Shown one piece after another: positions 7,592 to 21,639 of a DNA stretch of 22,758 nucleotides (its first letter is position 1; every line of letters starts with the position of its first letter). This stretch comes from a virus. The stretch lies in UHGV virus genome UHGV-2149192; one strand, given 5' to 3'. The position numbers were made by a program, and so were the translations under genes. The notes below the pieces were generated by a model that saw only the letters and a program-made list of their open reading frames with translations, ran no database searches and was not told the origin of the DNA.

Positions 7592-7654
7592 GTCTCCGCA
7601 CCTTATAAAGCGGGTGCCGGGGGTCGCAGCCCGGAATTGCATACGGCGATATAC

Positions 7655-7674
7655 GACGCGCCAGCGTCTTTTTT
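7655..7674 (+). terminator. Intrinsic terminator-like hairpin plus T-tract in the leader of Rha paralog 2
   Basis: GACGC-gcca-GCGTC stem-loop followed by TTTTTT, about 65 nt downstream of the promoter-like element. Confidence 0.45.
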
Positions 7675-7840
7675 ATCGTCCGCGCTCACGCACGCCAGAA
7701 TTATGGTGGGCTGGGCAGGGGAGCCGAAAGGCTCGCCGGTTTCCGTATGCGCCGGTACTGCGAACCCTGTTCAGTCTGCCACCAGTGAGTTTCGCAGCTC
7801 CGGTGGTGGAAGTTATCCATTGCATACGGAGGCTGCCATC

Positions 7841-8247: not shown

Positions 8248-8308
8248 GTCTCTGCACCTTATAAAGCGGGTGCCGGGCGTGGAAACCCGAAATTCAATAT
8301 AGAGCACA

Positions 8309-8329
8309 ACCGCGCTCATGCGGTTTTTT
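8309..8329 (+). terminator. Intrinsic terminator-like hairpin plus T-tract in the leader of Rha paralog 3
   Basis: ACCGC-gctcat-GCGGT followed by TTTTTT, about 60 nt after the promoter-like element. Confidence 0.45.
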
Positions 8330-8499
8330 CGTGTCATGAGCATCGTTACGCCCAAATTATGGTGGGGCGTGCAGGGCCAACTTCGGTTGGGCCGGGTTCT
8401 ATGTTGACCGGTATTTCCACCCCTGTACGTCTCACCACCTATATGGTCGTGGAAAGCCTTGGTGGTGAGTTCATTGAATTCAACATAGGGGCTGTCACC

Positions 8500-9051
8500 A
8501 TGACTACTCTCCCAACCCAATCTCACCCTGAAATCACGATTATCAATGGTCGCGTTGTCACCACATCTCTTGCAGTAGCTAATTACTTTACTAAACGGCA
8601 TGAGCGGGTTTTAGATAGAATTAGAAACCTCGAATGTTCCGCTGAATTTACTGAACACAATTTTGTGTTAAGTGAATACACCGACGCATCAGGCCGCAAA
8701 CTACCTTGCTATCAAATCACCCGCGATGGCTTCGCGTTCCTTGCCATGGGCTTCACTGGTAAACGTGCTGCCCGGTTCAAAGAGGCATACATCAACGCCT
8801 TTAACCTGATGGAGAAGAGTTTATCAGGTGCCGATACGTCTGATATGTCAGCTGTCGCACGAAACGCCAGAGGCGTATACCTGCATTTGCGTGAAATCCA
8901 TCAAATCTGGACAAGCCAGCTTTATCCAATGCTTAAGGCCGTTGAATCTCCGCTGGCTAGCAAACTGTACGACCGTGTTGGTGATGCTGTTTTTGGCGCT
9001 GCACTTGTTGATTCCAGGCTGAATGGTTCTGACAAGGAGGTTCGCCCATGA
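8500..9051 (+). CDS. Rha-family phage regulatory protein, paralog 3 (possible longer form from ATG 8200)
   Basis: From ATG 8500: MTTLPTQSHPEITIINGRVVTTSLAVANYFTKRHERVLDRIRNLECSAEF... is a clear Rha domain. An alternative start at 8200 has GGGAGG upstream and an ATGA overlap with the previous stop, so the long form cannot be excluded. Confidence 0.55.
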   Translation: MTTLPTQSHPEITIINGRVVTTSLAVANYFTKRHERVLDRIRNLECSAEFTEHNFVLSEYTDASGRKLPCYQITRDGFAFLAMGFTGKRAARFKEAYINAFNLMEKSLSGADTSDMSAVARNARGVYLHLREIHQIWTSQLYPMLKAVESPLASKLYDRVGDAVFGAALVDSRLNGSDKEVRP

Positions 9052-16654: not shown

Positions 16655-16750
16655 NNNNNNNNNNNNNNNNNNNNNNNNNNNNNNNNNNNNNNNNNNNNNN
16701 NNNNNNNNNNNNNNNNNNNNNNNNNNNNNNNNNNNNNNNNNNNNNNNNNN
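16655..16750. other. Run of 96 N (assembly gap or masked bases)
   Basis: Directly visible; content and true length unknown. Confidence 1.
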
Positions 16751-16827
16751 GGGTTCACAAGCAAACCTCAGGCCCACTGCTTTGCGCAAAAGCAGAATGA
16801 GCCTATCAGAGACAGGCTTAATGATCC

Positions 16828-17877
16828 ATGCTTAATACTGTAAAAATATCCAGTTGTGAGTTAATCAACGCCGACTGCCTGGAATTTATCCGGTCGTTAC
16901 CCGAAAATTCTGTTGACCTGATAGTCACGGACCCGCCGTACTTTAAAGTGAAGCCTGAGGGCTGGGATAACCAGTGGAAGGGCGACGATGATTACCTGAA
17001 GTGGCTGGACCAGTGTCTGGCGCAGTTCTGGCGGGTGCTGAAACCTGCCGGAAGTCTTTACCTGTTCTGTGGTCATCGCCTGGCATCTGATATCGAAATC
17101 ATGATGCGTGAACGCTTCAGTGTGCTGAACCATATTATCTGGGCGAAGCCGTCCGGACGCTGGAACGGATGCAACAAGGAAAGCCTGCGGGCGTATTTCC
17201 CCGCCACAGAGCGCATTCTGTTCGCGGAACATTATCAGGGGCCGTATCGTCCGAAAGATGCCGGGTATGCGGCGAAGGGCAGTGCACTGAAACAGCATGT
17301 GATGGCCCCGCTGATTTCTTACTTTCGTGATGCGCGCGCGGCCCTGGGGATAACGGCAAAACAGATTGCAGATGTCACAGGAAAGAAAAACATGGTGTCG
17401 CACTGGTTCAGTGCCAGTCAGTGGCAGCTACCGAACGAAAGCGATTATCTGAAATTACAGTCGCTGTTTGCCCGGGTGGCAGAAGAGAAACATCAGCGCG
17501 GTGAACTGGAAAAGCCCCACCACCAGCTGGTGGATACGTATACGTCACTGAACCGGCAGTATGTGGAGCTGCAGAGTGAATATAAGCATCTGCGGCGGTA
17601 TTTTGGTGTGACGGCGCAGGTGCCGTACACGGATGTATGGACACATAAACCGGTGCAGTTCTATCCCGGGAAACATCCGTGCGAAAAACCGGCAGAAATG
17701 CTGCAGCAGATAATCAGCGCAAGCAGTCGTCCGGGTGACCTGGTTGCAGATTTTTTTATGGGCTCAGGTTCAACGGTAAAAGCGGCACTGGCGCTCGGGC
17801 GTCGTGCGATTGGCGTTGAACTGGAGACCGGACGTTTTGAGCAGACAGTCAGGGAAGTTCAGGATTTAATCGTTTGA
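16828..17877 (+). CDS. Beta-class amino-methyltransferase (N6-adenine or N4-cytosine DNA MTase)
   Basis: Motif IV DPPY (LIVTDPPYF) near the N-terminus and the AdoMet-binding FFMGSGST near the C-terminus (IV-then-I order of beta-class N6_N4 MTases); no adjacent endonuclease candidate. Confidence 0.8.
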   Translation: MLNTVKISSCELINADCLEFIRSLPENSVDLIVTDPPYFKVKPEGWDNQWKGDDDYLKWLDQCLAQFWRVLKPAGSLYLFCGHRLASDIEIMMRERFSVLNHIIWAKPSGRWNGCNKESLRAYFPATERILFAEHYQGPYRPKDAGYAAKGSALKQHVMAPLISYFRDARAALGITAKQIADVTGKKNMVSHWFSASQWQLPNESDYLKLQSLFARVAEEKHQRGELEKPHHQLVDTYTSLNRQYVELQSEYKHLRRYFGVTAQVPYTDVWTHKPVQFYPGKHPCEKPAEMLQQIISASSRPGDLVADFFMGSGSTVKAALALGRRAIGVELETGRFEQTVREVQDLIV

Positions 17878-17926: not shown

Positions 17927-18002
17927 GGCCCTTTAGCTCAGTGGTGAGAGCGAGCGACTCATAATCGCCAGGTCGCTGGTTCAAATCCAGCAAGGGCCAC
18001 CA
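17927..18002 (+). tRNA. tRNA-Ile2 (anticodon CAU, ileX/ileZ-like)
   Basis: GGCCCTTTAGCTCAGTGGTGAGAGCGAGCGACTCATAATCGCCAGGTCGCTGGTTCAAATCCAGCAAGGGCCACCA: perfect 7-bp acceptor stem, anticodon loop CTCATAA, T-loop TTCAAAT, encoded CCA; closely resembles E. coli ileX as I recall it. Confidence 0.8.
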
Positions 18003-18009
18003 TCACATA

Positions 18010-18086
18010 CCGCCATTAGCTCATCAGGAAAGAGCGCCAGCCTTCGAAGCTGGTTGCGCGGAGTTCGGGTCCCCGAAGGCGGTCCA
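18010..18086 (+). tRNA. tRNA-Arg-like (anticodon UCG) with imperfect stems; possibly degenerate
   Basis: Cloverleaf can be drawn with anticodon loop CTTCGAA (UCG) and encoded CCA, but the acceptor stem has an A-A mismatch, the T-stem has an A-C mismatch, and the T-loop is TTCGGGT. Confidence 0.45.
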
Positions 18087-18099
18087 TTATCTGTATCCT

Positions 18100-18176
18100 G
18101 CGTTGTTAGCTCAGCCGGACAGAGCAATTGCCTTCTAAGCAATCGGTCACTGGTTCGAATCCAGTACAACGCGCCA
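18100..18176 (+). tRNA. tRNA-Arg (anticodon UCU)
   Basis: GCGTTGTTAGCTCAGCCGGACAGAGCAATTGCCTTCTAAGCAATCGGTCACTGGTTCGAATCCAGTACAACGCGCCA: perfect acceptor stem, anticodon loop CTTCTAA, T-loop TTCGAAT, CCA encoded. Confidence 0.8.
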
Positions 18177-18215: not shown

Positions 18216-18411
18216 AAATGTCTCACAATTCAGGCGGTTGACTGTTGTCTGGTTTGCGGGGAGTTTGTTAAAAGAAACTGGCATGGTGAATCCCCCTGTG
18301 CGGAGGGGCAATCAGCGAGTAGGTATATGGGATAATCGCGGATTCAGGTGCTGGTACTGAATTCACCGGGAGGCACCCGGCACCATGCAATGGCACATAG
18401 CGCCACTCTCC

Positions 18412-18446
18412 AGCCCCTCTCCGGAGGGGCTGTTTATATTGATTTT
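18412..18446 (+). terminator. Second terminator-like hairpin (AGCCCCTC-tccg-GAGGGGCT) with T-rich tail
   Basis: Perfect 8-bp GC-rich stem followed by gtttatattgatttt; a related hairpin CCCCT-gtgcgg-AGGGG lies near 18285-18300. Confidence 0.45.
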
Positions 18447-18466: not shown

Positions 18467-18802
18467 TTATGGACTTTGTTGTTTTAGTCCATAAGGACAT
18501 ATTTGCAGAGTGCAACGGTTATTAAAGCATTCATTCAATACGTTATCTGTATTTGTAGGGCATTCCTGGCTGTTTTTGATTAAATTCCAGAATGTTTTAT
18601 TGAATGGTACTACGTTGTAAATGGTTACAGGTAGCACTTTGTTATTGAGCATGATGCCTGTGTGAGTCAGTGTAAATATACTTTCAGGAGGTAAGAAAGC
18701 ATCCGATTGATACCAGATTATTAATTTTATTTTACTCCATATGACTGAAAAAGATATTCCGCATGATGGCTGGATAACTGTATCAATCACAATCCACTTC
18801 AT
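18467..18802 (-). CDS. Hypothetical protein (111 aa) in an AT-rich island at the position where Stx phages carry toxin genes
   Basis: ATG 18800-18802 with AAGGAA at 6-nt spacing; C-terminal Cys-rich segment ([24 protein letters not shown]); sits in an AT-rich block between tRNAs and lysis genes. No similarity recognised. Confidence 0.35.
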
Positions 18803-19062
18803 TTGGTTTCCTTGTTTATGCCTTGCTGGTGATGTCCTGAAAAGTATAAATGATATTTTTGAATGTAAACCATAGAGCAGAATTATTTTTCTGATGTTGT
18901 TTATTGTTTATTTAAATGCAGGGTGGTTTATATCTCGTCTTGTAGTTTATCCATGCATATCTGCTTGATAATCAGGTTTTTATTTAAGGTATAGTTTTGT
19001 GTTTTTTCTGTATTACATGTCAGGTATTTTAAAGAATTATTTTTCAGATAGTGGAAAGAACC

Positions 19063-19251
19063 ATGGCATTTAAACACTATGATGTTGTCAGGGCGGCGCC
19101 GCCGTCAGATCTTGCGGAAAAGCTGACACATAAACTGAAAGAGGGCTGGCAGCCGTTTGGTAGTCCGGTGGCCATAACCCCTTATACCCTGATGCAGGCG
19201 ATTGCAGCAGAAGGTGATGTGGTGGTCAGTGGTGCAACTGAGCCGGAGTGA
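19063..19251 (+). CDS. Small conserved phage protein (possibly DUF1737-like) upstream of the lysis cassette
   Basis: ATG 19063 (ORF track begins at in-frame GTG 19051); MAFKHYDVVRAAPPSDLAEKLTHKLKEGWQPFGSPVAI... resembles small proteins found next to lysis genes in lambdoid prophages (from memory). Confidence 0.45.
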   Translation: MAFKHYDVVRAAPPSDLAEKLTHKLKEGWQPFGSPVAITPYTLMQAIAAEGDVVVSGATEPE

Positions 19252-19494
19252 TACTACGTCATCGTACTGGCCCGGCATTCCAGGCCATAAAAGACAGTCT
19301 GGCAGTGGGACTAAATGCACTGACGCTGACGGATATTACCAAAAATGCAACGTATGGCGTTGAGATAGAAAGTCTGGCGCTGGAGATAAATGCACCGGCA
19401 TCATCATAAAAAGTGAGCCAGTCAAATGGAAGGTATCGTTAAACTCACCGGTAGTGTCAGTGGGTCGTCTGAGACGCTTGCATGAGTTATCAGA

Positions 19495-19526
19495 GCCATC
19501 AGTAGTTAACTGGTGGCTTTTTTATT
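19495..19526 (+). terminator. Strong intrinsic terminator immediately upstream of the holin (tR'-like position)
   Basis: GCCATCAG-tagttaa-CTGGTGGC (8-bp stem with one G-U) followed by TTTTTTATT; about 30 nt upstream of the holin RBS. Confidence 0.55.
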
Positions 19527-19558
19527 GTTGTCAGCTTCCGGATAACGGGAGACGGGGT

Positions 19559-19774
19559 ATGGACCAGATGGAAAAAATCACAACAGGTGTGTCATACACC
19601 ACGTCAGCGGTGGGAACGGGCTACTGGTTCCTGCAGTTGCTGGACAGGGTTTCCCCGTCTCAGTGGGCGGCAATAGGCGTGCTGGGAAGTCTGCTGTTTG
19701 GGCTGCTGACATATCTGACTAACCTGTATTTCAAAATCAGAGAGGACCGTCGTAAGGCGGCACGGGGAGAGTAA
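19559..19774 (+). CDS. Class II holin, phage-21 S-like pinholin (dual start MDQM)
   Basis: [71 protein letters not shown] closely resembles the S21 pinholin as I recall it; two TM segments; Met1/Met4 dual-start arrangement; GGGAGACGGGG RBS. Confidence 0.85.
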
Positions 19775-19778
19775 TTCA

Positions 19779-20123
19779 ATGACTCAAAACTATGAACTGA
19801 TTGTGAAAGGGATCCGCAATTTTGAGAATACAGTTACGGTAACTTTAGCGTTACGGGACAAAAAACGCTTTGACGGTGAAATTTTAGACCTGGACATCTC
19901 GCTGGACCGTGTTGAAGGTGCCGCGCTGGAGTTTTATGAGGCAGCAGCCAGAAGGAGCATCAGACAGGTCTTCCTGGATGTTGCTGCCGGGTTATGTGAA
20001 GGGGATGAGCAGTCACCGGAAAAGCGCCCCATAATTTTAGAGGCGCAGGGTGTGTGGATAACCTACAAAGGAAAACTGCCGGGAAGAATTACTGGTTCAC
20101 TGAAGACTCCGCCGAAATGGTAA
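19779..20123 (+). CDS. Hypothetical protein (114 aa) inserted between holin and endolysin
   Basis: ATG 19789-19791 (ORF-track 19779 is an in-frame GTG) with GGGGAGAG 9 nt upstream; no motif recognised. Confidence 0.5.
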   Translation: MTQNYELIVKGIRNFENTVTVTLALRDKKRFDGEILDLDISLDRVEGAALEFYEAAARRSIRQVFLDVAAGLCEGDEQSPEKRPIILEAQGVWITYKGKLPGRITGSLKTPPKW

Positions 20124-20361
20124 TTTCACCAGCATATTTTTCTTCCAGTAATACCGCCAGCCACTTGAAAGAATTTTGTTGTTGCTGGGACCATTTGGGG
20201 TTGAGTGATTCAAGCTGGAGCGATGCCAGTGTTGGTTGCATTTGTTCCTTGGGAATTGAGAATGCCAGATATGAAAATGCGACAGTAAGGGCATTTACAT
20301 CATCCCGAAGCTTGGAAATGCAGTCGAGCAACTCCTGTAGAGAAATGGTGCTATTGTCCAT
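20089..20361 (-). CDS. Hypothetical protein (90 aa), antisense to the lysis cassette
   Basis: ATG 20359-20361 with GAGAGGA at 6-7 nt spacing; 3' end overlaps the 3' end of the 19779-20123 gene by about 35 nt (convergent). Confidence 0.45.
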   Translation of the reverse strand: MDNSTISLQELLDCISKLRDDVNALTVAFSYLAFSIPKEQMQPTLASLQLESLNPKWSQQQQNSFKWLAVLLEEKYAGEITISAESSVNQ

Positions 20362-20466
20362 AAACAATCCTCTCTATTGTATTTAACTATTCCTTGCCTG
20401 ATTCAACAGGCCGGGACAGATAAACATATCCAGGGTTCAGAAACCGATAAATCCTGATAAATATCC

Positions 20467-21000
20467 ATGAACGCAAAAATCAGATACGGCCTGTCGGCTG
20501 CCGTTCTGGCACTGATTGCCGTCGGTGCGCCTGCGCCTGATATTCTCGACCAGTTTCTGGATGAAAAAGAAGGTAACCACACAACGGCATACCGCGATGG
20601 TTCCGGTATATGGACCATCTGTCGTGGTGCCACAATGGTGGATGGTAAGCCCGTCATACCGGGAATGAGGCTGTCGAAGGAAAAATGCGACCAGGTTAAC
20701 GCTATTGAACGTGATAAGGCGCTGGCATGGGTGGAGCGCAATATTAAAGTACCACTGACCGAACCACAGAAAGCGGGTATAGCGTCATTCTGTCCCTATA
20801 ACATTGGCCCCGGTAAGTGTTTCCCGTCGACGTTTTATAAGCGGCTGAATGCCGGTGATCGTAAGGGCGCATGCGAGGCGATTCGCTGGTGGATAAAAGA
20901 TGGTGGGCGCGATTGCCGCATACGTTCAAATAACTGCTATGGACAGGTTATTCGTCGTGACCAGGAAAGCGCATTAGCCTGTTGGGGGATAGATCAGTGA
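20467..21000 (+). CDS. R: SAR endolysin (T4-lysozyme-like family, signal-anchor-release type)
   Basis: N-terminal weakly hydrophobic Gly/Ala-rich SAR segment ([18 protein letters not shown]) followed by the lysozyme catalytic region ([22 protein letters not shown]); pairs with the pinholin as in phage 21. Confidence 0.85.
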
Positions 21001-21464
21001 GCAGAGTCGCAGCGATTATTTATACTCTGGTTATCTGCACCATCGTCTGCCTGTCATGGGCTGTTAATCATTACCGCGATAACGCCATTACCTACAAAGC
21101 CCAGCGCGACAAAAATGTCAGAGAACTGAAGCTGGCGAACGCGGCAATTACTGACATGCAGATGCGTCAGCGTGATGTTGCTGCGCTCGATGCAAAATAC
21201 ACGAAGGAGTTAGCTGATGCGAAAGCTGAAAATGATGCTCTTCTGCGGAAGCTTGATAATGGTGGCAGGGTGCTCGTCAAAGGAAAATGCCCTGTGCCAT
21301 CCTCAGCCGAAACCTCCAGCGCCTCCGGCATGGGCAATGATGCCACCGTCGAACTCTCTCCAGTTGCTGGACGAAACGTTCTCGATATCCGGGACGGAAT
21401 TATCCGCGACCAAACAGCACTGAGAACGCTTCAGGAATACATTAGGACGCAATGCCTTCGATGA
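20997..21464 (+). CDS. Rz: Rz i-spanin
   Basis: From GTG 20997 (overlapping the endolysin stop): [79 protein letters not shown]... is nearly identical to my recollection of lambda Rz over the N-terminal half. Confidence 0.8.
21217..21423 (+). CDS. Rz1: Rz1 o-spanin lipoprotein, embedded in the +1 frame of Rz
   Basis: [21 protein letters not shown]... has a lipobox (VAGC) and a proline-rich stretch ([11 protein letters not shown]); AAGGAG 7 nt upstream of ATG 21217. Confidence 0.7.
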
Positions 21465-21639
21465 TAGCAATAATTTTACTCATCATCCTTCACATCTGGC
21501 TCTGTAGACAGGGTGGTGATCACTTCTGGAGTAAATCCAGATTAAACATCTCATTGCTGATGCTTGATATTGAGCATCTGGCGCGCAGTAAGGGGCTGCG
21601 TTGAGATAAGAGCCAGTTCATTACAAATACCAGGATTTA

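Follow-up and report, generated by a model that had tools for sequence, protein, structure and literature searches.

The founding member of the YdfR family is the protein of the Escherichia coli K-12 Qin prophage (b1555, P76160), whose gene lies between a class II holin gene (essQ) and an R21-type lysozyme gene (rrrQ). A 2026 paper reported a bacterial two-hybrid interaction of K-12 YdfR with RNase E 1-597 and co-purification of RNase E 1-598 with YdfR, found YdfR residues 1-72 to be enough for RNase E binding, and noted that RNA also co-purifies with the protein; overexpression of K-12 ydfR altered few transcripts and caused no growth defect (PMC13232886). Here we describe a related locus in UHGV virus genome UHGV-2149192 (22,758 nucleotides (nt), called the window below), where about 690 bp separate the holin gene (S) from the endolysin gene (R) of a phage-21-type lysis cassette. 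This interval encodes a YdfR-family protein of 114 amino acids (aa) on the plus strand (open reading frame (ORF) A) and a 90-aa protein on the minus strand (ORF B). As in K-12, the ydfR-family gene sits between a class II holin gene and an R21-type lysozyme gene, and the two YdfR proteins are 79% identical across their first 72 residues. The K-12 protein differs in having only 103 aa, with a short unrelated helical tail in place of the mid-module of ORF A (from residue ~73), and in the K-12 locus ydfR and rrrQ overlap at their stop and start, with no antisense gene after ydfR. Stx2-converting phage 86 (orf5/orf6) and the Escherichia phage PhiR5_1 group are also like the window, with a YdfR-family (DUF1327) gene and a small antisense gene between S and R and with the same flanks. 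They differ in the long C-terminal extensions of their YdfR proteins (268 and 211 aa in total length), and their antisense genes (phrog_1853 and phrog_2572) have no detectable similarity to ORF B.

Our analysis has led us to the view that the 690 bp are probably a mosaic accessory region within the lysis cassette of a lambdoid late operon, built from two independent modules, the YdfR gene and the moron-like ORF B. The locus itself is already annotated and is an instance of very common E. coli prophage mosaicism. The window is a lambdoid prophage, and its segment 19450-21000 is 100% identical to a prophage of E. coli CFT073 (NC_004431.1, 1344448-1345998) and to many other genomes of extraintestinal pathogenic E. 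coli. In RefSeq, the identical CFT073 locus reads class II holin, YdfR family protein, hypothetical protein (minus strand), lysozyme and lysis protein. ORF A matched the Pfam family DUF1327 (PF07041) over residues 1-112 (E 8e-41; 138.6 bits, cut-off 25). It also matched phrog_406 from end to end, and is annotated in RefSeq as a YdfR family protein (WP_000193296.1). ORF B matched phrog_2411 over residues 1-90 of 90 (E 4e-59); its UniRef name is 'Ybl58' and its RefSeq accession WP_000370546.1. The earlier note on this DNA had called both genes unknown, which does not hold, since RefSeq and PHROGs have entries for the two of them and ORF A falls into a named Pfam family on which experiments were published recently. 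Its claim of two real genes between S and R, one of them antisense, is borne out by these family matches and by the CFT073 annotation. The ORF list and a reading of the sequence also confirmed where the note had placed the genes and their ribosome-binding sites, with convergent 3' ends that overlap by 35 nt (20089-20123) and a spacer of 105 nt (20362-20466) between the ORF B start and the R start.

The note had further started from the expectation that a holin gene is normally followed directly by the endolysin gene. We observed ydfR-like DNA in 4349 of 5426 complete E. coli genomes (80%), at 8616 places and with up to 10 per genome; it was annotated as YdfR family in all of the matches listed, and lay between S and R in all contexts that were read. 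As ydfR-like DNA is so frequent between S and R, a gene at this position is common in natural E. coli prophages and is no anomaly.

An indication of two separate modules came from a survey of the interval between ydfR and R, which we refer to as the slot. We took 120 viral contigs carrying the ydfR mid-module, located the lysozyme start in 113 of them, and classed these by the distance to the R start codon. No antisense gene was present in 48 contigs (55, 75 or 94 nt to the R start), where YdfR ends in ...KT, ...LA or ...ESQP; thus about 40% of the sampled cassettes have no antisense insert. The ORF B type of the window (368 nt) was found in 29 contigs. In another 25 (444 or 532-554 nt) the slot holds an 88-aa (phrog_2572) or a 91-aa antisense gene and YdfR is C-terminally extended, and in seven (939 nt) it holds a 104-aa antisense gene (phrog_1853) next to a 268-aa YdfR, as in phage 86. 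In three contigs (529 and 712 nt) YdfR has a long tail but a real antisense gene is missing, and in the last one (1797 nt) the slot contains an insertion sequence (IS). When the antisense gene types were compared by pairwise BLASTP, we found no similarity among them, and searches with the other antisense genes against PADLOC, NCBIfam and Pfam (E up to 10) gave nothing meaningful. The label 'DUF1823' in the PhiR5_1 record proved to be a sub-threshold match (15 bits against a cut-off of 25) and was rejected.

Junction alignment placed the boundaries of the exchanged DNA. All slot classes have a common left flank up to the ...SLKTPP codons of YdfR (20100-20114 in the window) and a common right flank, made up of the ~44 nt that precede the R ATG (20423-20466). 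What lies between them in the window is an ORF B-specific module, which is absent or replaced in other cassettes with the same flanks, and its GC content is 42% (52-54% in S, R and Rz). ORF B therefore has two of the marks of a moron, namely presence or absence in collinear relatives with sharp junctions, and a deviant base composition. A 9-nt direct repeat, CTGAAGACT, is present at both junctions in several slot classes (the window copy is at 20100-20108), and one contig has a single CTGAAGACT copy and no insert. This suggests that inserts are gained or lost through CTGAAGACT microhomology. The other slot classes carry a GC-rich hairpin (CGCCAGTG-CCCACC-CACTGGCG and variants) about 60-80 nt 5' of the R ATG. 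Its place is between the start of the antisense gene and the R leader, and no T-run follows it; its equivalent in the window is the smaller hairpin at 20396-20411. Phages with occupied slots (Chlobot, phiSTEC1575-Stx2k and the PhiR series) are viable, inducible and plaque-forming, and thus the inserts do not disable lysis.

We also evaluated whether ORF A and ORF B occur apart. The ORF B module (about 20115-20411) was found in 1221 of the 5426 complete E. coli genomes, including REL606 and the BL21-derived Rosetta2-DE3, and in the deposited phages Chlobot, vB_EcoS-783R2 and phiSTEC1575-Stx2k. In REL606 (NC_012967.1, 1416625-1418524) it lies in the Rac remnant, in the order essD-ydfR-ORF B-lysozyme-Rz-trkG. 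Among 80 viral ORF B loci that we retrieved, the holin was found in 78 (two loci were cut) and the lysozyme in 79; the ydfR/ORF B/R geometry was invariant wherever these neighbours were present, and in the same loci holin identity ranged over 75-100% and Rz identity over 45-100%. YdfR occurs without ORF B in K-12 Qin, where essQ-ydfR-rrrQ contains no antisense gene. ORF B relatives with no accompanying YdfR were seen on 73 plasmids, most of them conjugative (IncF where checked), and one plasmid copy lies 309 nt 3' of an AIDA-like autotransporter adhesin gene with its heptosyltransferase gene. On the chromosome of strain F11, an intact ORF B homologue lies beside iha in an IS-rich island. Its homology to the window spans ORF B, the spacer and the first ~23 nt of R, and this copy is a decayed lysis cassette fragment that has lost ydfR and R, with only ORF B intact.

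Between tail genes M and L, more distant relatives of ORF B (30-36% identity) lie antisense; others are found just 5' of two small genes and the terminase genes and point the opposite way, and others again are on chromosomes, for example between dinI and bssS. The genes that converge on these remote relatives are unrelated to YdfR. One such gene, of 71 aa, ends in LKKPPSY, which resembles the YdfR tail LKTPPKW; with no DNA similarity between them, this was set aside as coincidence. The remote relative between dinI and bssS (92 aa) lies ~1.7 kb 3' of rne (the RNase E gene), with pyrC and dinI intervening, and this closeness, though curious in view of the reported binding of YdfR to RNase E, is probably also a coincidence. 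The suggestion of the earlier note that the insert could be a moron thus fits ORF B, given its presence/absence polymorphism, its lower GC content and its relatives lying antisense in late operons.

ORF B is open to the objection that it overlaps a 110-aa ORF on the opposite strand (the shadow ORF), and we therefore compared the two frames. ORF B is full length (90-92 aa) in the copies whose aligned coding regions are 87% and 72% identical in nucleotides, and also in the plasmid copy at about 61% protein identity. The shadow frame has one stop in the 87% copy, four in the 72% copy and two in the plasmid copy, and is ruled out as a gene by these stops in diverged copies in which ORF B is open. 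The ratio of nonsynonymous to synonymous substitution rates (dN/dS) was uninformative for this choice (0.38 for ORF B and 0.24 for the shadow ORF), since the third codon positions of the two frames coincide and substitution ratios cannot tell them apart. Frameshifting of ORF A into the shadow ORF to make a long YdfR was also considered and rejected; the shadow frame is unconserved, and its product bears no resemblance to the real C-terminal extensions. Measured against the diverged copies, dN/dS of ORF B was 0.17-0.29. Judged from these sequence comparisons, ORF B is a genuine gene under purifying selection.

Homologues of ORF B form 63 clusters at 67-99% identity, and an exhaustive profile search of 1.84 billion representatives returned only 20 proteins. 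Among these are remote full-length relatives of 81-97 aa at 26-36% identity, with the common core ELL..I..LR..VN.L..AFSYLAFS...E....T.A.L.FES.N. The protein is acidic (isoelectric point 4.4), signal and transmembrane segments are absent, and its model has four helices with a predicted local distance difference test score (pLDDT) of 77. No meaningful match was found in Pfam (E up to 10), NCBIfam or PADLOC, a fold search of the PDB returned generic helical-repeat structures only, and no mention of 'ybl58' was found in the literature. The stop and the last ~8 codons of ORF B are antisense to the conserved ydfR core. This tail is modelled with the lowest confidence, and it is also where copies from other contexts are different; for these reasons it looks like read-through into adjoining sequence.

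ORF A is oriented with the late operon, starts 4 nt past the holin stop and has its ribosome-binding site within the holin gene, and it would therefore be expressed with the lysis genes. The 4-nt distance also makes it probable that ORF A is translationally coupled to the pinholin. ORF A was intact in 38 of 38 distinct haplotypes, with a ratio of nonsynonymous to synonymous polymorphism (pN/pS) of 0.42-0.45. In an AlphaFold2 model (45-sequence alignment), residues 1-72 form a beta-beta-beta-alpha domain with pLDDT 65-86, and pLDDT is <50 for residues 72-114. Residues 73-112 are a conserved and widespread mid-module, GLCEGDEQSPEKRPIILEAQGVWITYKGKLPGRITGSLKTPP, and the last two codons (KW) are specific to the ORF B-type slot variant. 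Since ORF A is 79% identical to K-12 YdfR over the 72 residues that suffice there, its N-terminal domain most likely binds the catalytic N-terminal half of RNase E, and possibly RNA, to judge by this homology. A 196-aa variant of the YdfR family was also seen, in which most of the N-terminal domain is tandemly duplicated within the protein. In the literature 'DUF1327' was named once, in passing, and the passages retrieved from a survey of Stx-phage lysis cassettes (PMC8136144) do not discuss ORFs between S and R.

Taken together, we propose that the late promoter would drive ORF A along with S, R and Rz, and that ORF A may act as a non-toxic late-phase modulator, or be a passenger, and would not be a lysis effector. 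ORF B would be a separately acquired and oppositely oriented moron-type cargo of ~300 bp, encoding a small acidic helical protein of the cytoplasm that is most plausibly made in the lysogen or before late transcription dominates. The modules in the slot would be swapped by recombination between the ydfR '...SLKTPP' codons and the 44-nt R leader.

Several observations weigh against this proposal. ORF B is antisense to the late transcript, so only a leftward promoter (in the 105-nt spacer or further right) could make its product, and a standard promoter/terminator scan gave counts at or below chance and no promoter or terminator for ORF B. A relaxed scan yielded a sole sigma-70-like candidate, and this is weak; its -35 element is the loop of the hairpin at 20396-20411 and is not conserved in diverged variants, and its -10 element adjoins the ORF B Shine-Dalgarno sequence so closely that the transcript might omit it. 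The ORF B stop falls within ydfR, and no terminator follows it. Constraint on ORF B is not universal either, since 4 of 38 haplotypes have nonsense mutations and several variants are frameshifted. In prophage contexts ORF B always adjoins the 114-aa form of YdfR, so that a functional link is conceivable on the phage data; this linkage follows physically from the overlap of the two ORFs. For both proteins, the fold searches returned weak and generic matches only. RNase E binding has been reported for K-12 YdfR only, a form without the mid-module, its physiological relevance is unproven, and the effect of overexpression was small.

Other features of the spacer can be stated more simply. The GAGG core of the ORF B Shine-Dalgarno sequence is kept in all variants, the 84% variant included, and the iha-linked copy has a -10-like TATAAT at a position similar to that of the candidate. 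In the 84% variant the stem of the hairpin at 20396-20411 is retained and the loop is altered, and no T-run follows on either strand. Terminator-like sites are about as numerous as chance predicts, and the nearest one on the minus strand, ~490 nt beyond the ORF B stop, is a weak 5-bp stem. With no terminator past ORF B, leftward transcription of any kind would continue in antisense across ydfR and S. The positions of the main elements in the region are collected in Table 1.

Table 1. Genes, signals and exchange boundaries of the S-R region in the window
Feature	Position	Strand	Details
Phage-21-type class II holin (pinholin), S	19559-19774	+	Pfam PF04971 (P21 holin S), E 9e-33; RefSeq 'class II holin family protein'
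Shine-Dalgarno sequence of ORF A, GGGGAGAG	19764-19771	+	Inside holin 3' end, 9 nt 5' of ATG (sequence reading)
ORF A, 114 aa	19779-20123	+	YdfR family; ATG 19779, stop 20121-20123
Shadow ORF, 110 aa, opposite ORF B	20054-20386	+	Rejected as gene; broken in 9 of 38 haplotypes
ORF B, 90 aa	20089-20361	-	ATG 20361, stop 20089-20091; 92 aa if started at TTG 20367
ORF B-specific module, ~300 bp	20115-20411	.	Absent or replaced in other cassettes with same flanks
Shine-Dalgarno sequence of ORF B, GAGAGGA	20374-20368	-	7 nt 5' of ATG
Candidate sigma-70-like promoter of ORF B	20376-20406	-	TTGAAT, 19-nt spacer, TACAAT (20381-20376); relaxed scan, weak
Hairpin GCCTG-ATTCAA-CAGGC	20396-20411	.	Between ORF B and R leader
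R leader, 44 nt	20423-20466	+	Common to all slot variants; right-hand recombination flank
R21-type lysozyme of signal-arrest-release (SAR) type, R	20467-21000	+	Pfam PF00959, phrog_7; RefSeq 'lysozyme' / rrrQ
Rz i-spanin	20997-21464	+	Pfam PF03245; RefSeq 'lysis protein'
Rz1 lipoprotein ORF, embedded in Rz	21217-21423	+	ORF list; lipobox present

As can be seen from Table 1, the neighbouring genes make up a phage-21-type cassette, with a dual-start pinholin (M-D-Q-M, by sequence reading), a SAR endolysin whose N-terminus has a G/A-rich, SAR-like segment (sequence reading), and Rz with embedded Rz1. We could not recognise a Shine-Dalgarno sequence of R in the leader 20423-20466 by reading the sequence. 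The leader contains a hairpin (20431-20437 / 20450-20456) with G-U to G-C changes among slot variants, and this hairpin may be a translational control element for R. A scan of 19000-21600 against Rfam found no RNA family.

Further features were noted upstream in the window. A 12-bp hairpin followed by a T-run lies on the plus strand at 19492-19520, ~40 nt 5' of the holin start; it is terminator-like and lies inside the late operon, and a truncated DUF1737 gene and a small ORF (19051-19409) lie just 5' of it. An IS200C transposase gene is located at ~16700-17160, between a Q-like antiterminator gene and the tRNA/late region, and this insertion might affect late transcription of the lysis cassette. 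A full-length match to the STnc100 small RNA (sRNA) was found at 18252-18441 (plus strand, 132 bits), just 3' of three prophage tRNA genes (17927-18173) and adjoining an antisense iraM gene (about 18467-18802). An isrK sRNA with a C4 antisense RNA after it was found in two tandem copies, at 7598-7786 and 8254-8442 (at the Rfam gathering level), and this is a duplicated RNA module of the P1/P7-like immunity or anti-Q type.

The observations above bear on other explanations of the locus. The earlier note had raised the possibility that ORF A and ORF B are a functional pair (a toxin/immunity or toxin/antitoxin pair, or a lysis-timing regulator with its antagonist), and the convergent 3' ends with their 35-nt overlap, the invariant geometry in viral ORF B loci and the site within the lysis cassette would be in keeping with this. 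In the other slot variants, too, the antisense gene abuts or overlaps the variable YdfR C-terminal extension, which is superficially like a polymorphic C-terminal domain with its cognate partner. However, the linkage between the type of YdfR tail and the type of antisense gene is physically trivial, as the two overlap, and the genes do come apart: YdfR is found without an antisense gene in K-12 and in 48 of the 113 classified contigs, a long YdfR tail has no antisense neighbour in classes 529 and 712, and at least six other contexts contain ORF B relatives but no YdfR. The two genes lie on opposite strands and hence form no operon, neither protein has a Pfam match beyond DUF1327 or any NCBIfam or PADLOC match, a toxin-like domain is absent, and overexpression of K-12 ydfR gave no growth defect (PMC13232886). 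A pair is thus largely refuted by gene separability, and we consider it very unlikely. It is also quite unlikely, in our estimate, that the ORF B module matters chiefly through a leftward antisense RNA, with the protein secondary; this RNA would damp leaky expression of the holin and late genes in the lysogen or tune the S:R ratio via processing of double-stranded RNA. Such an RNA would agree with the lack of a terminator between the ORF B stop and the holin gene, with the tolerance of ORF B nonsense mutations in some prophages, and with the occurrence of at least four unrelated antisense genes in the same position, as if antisense transcription itself could be selected. However, the protein is under purifying selection (dN/dS 0.17-0.29), is full length even where the holin gene and ydfR are gone (the iha and plasmid copies), and has remote homologues of the same length in unrelated contexts; moreover, the promoter is weak or uncertain and ~40% of cassettes have no antisense insert.

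A further explanation takes ORF B to be a lysogen-expressed protein of benefit to the host (in superinfection exclusion, defence, anti-defence or virulence-linked regulation), with the S-R slot as a hot spot for small cargo. The presence/absence polymorphism and type replacement in the slot, the recurrence of the family antisense in late operons, the GC content below that of the flanks, and the intact ORF B in decayed fragments beside iha and AIDA-like autotransporter genes are all compatible with such a benefit. Yet PADLOC, Pfam and NCBIfam gave no match, the fold is a generic helical bundle, no paper on ybl58 was found, and the adhesin neighbours may reflect coincidental hitch-hiking in IS-rich islands; we regard this explanation as unlikely. 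We hold a broader version to be doubtful to a similar degree, in which the ydfR-R interval would be a dedicated exchange site for at least four unrelated ~90-aa antisense genes, the ORF B family would have an undescribed function in lysogens (as an exclusion, defence or anti-defence factor, or as an antisense brake on leaky holin), and temperate phages would have, in YdfR, a protein that binds RNase E in the late phase. We retain, as the probable one, the reading of the 690 bp as a mosaic accessory region of two independent modules.

As it stands, neither gene is tied to lysis control by the present evidence, and the locus carries little weight. It does correct the textbook expectation of S followed by R, since a ydfR-family gene between the two is very common in natural E. 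coli prophages, and it marks out a small recombination slot whose flanks are conserved and in which at least four small antisense genes alternate. Pfam does not cover the ORF B family, which is under selection; since REL606 and a BL21-derived strain carry an identical copy, its expression and phenotype would be cheap to test. Phage-encoded modulators of RNase E include phiKZ Dip, T4 Srd and T7 gp0.7. If the binding of K-12 YdfR to RNase E is physiological, the lysis cassette would likewise carry a modulator of RNA decay.

For ORF B, the nearest known counterparts are lambda bor and the other morons of lambdoid phages. The bor gene encodes a lipoprotein, has its own promoter, is expressed in the lysogenic state and confers serum resistance; a promoter, a terminator, expression and a phenotype of ORF B are at most putative, and there is no sequence relationship between the two. 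What ORF B has in common with bor and the lambdoid morons is that it is a small accessory gene lying by or among the genes of the late operon. Like bor and some of the morons, it is oriented against late transcription, and like the lambdoid morons in general, it is present or absent between collinear phages and has an atypical base composition.

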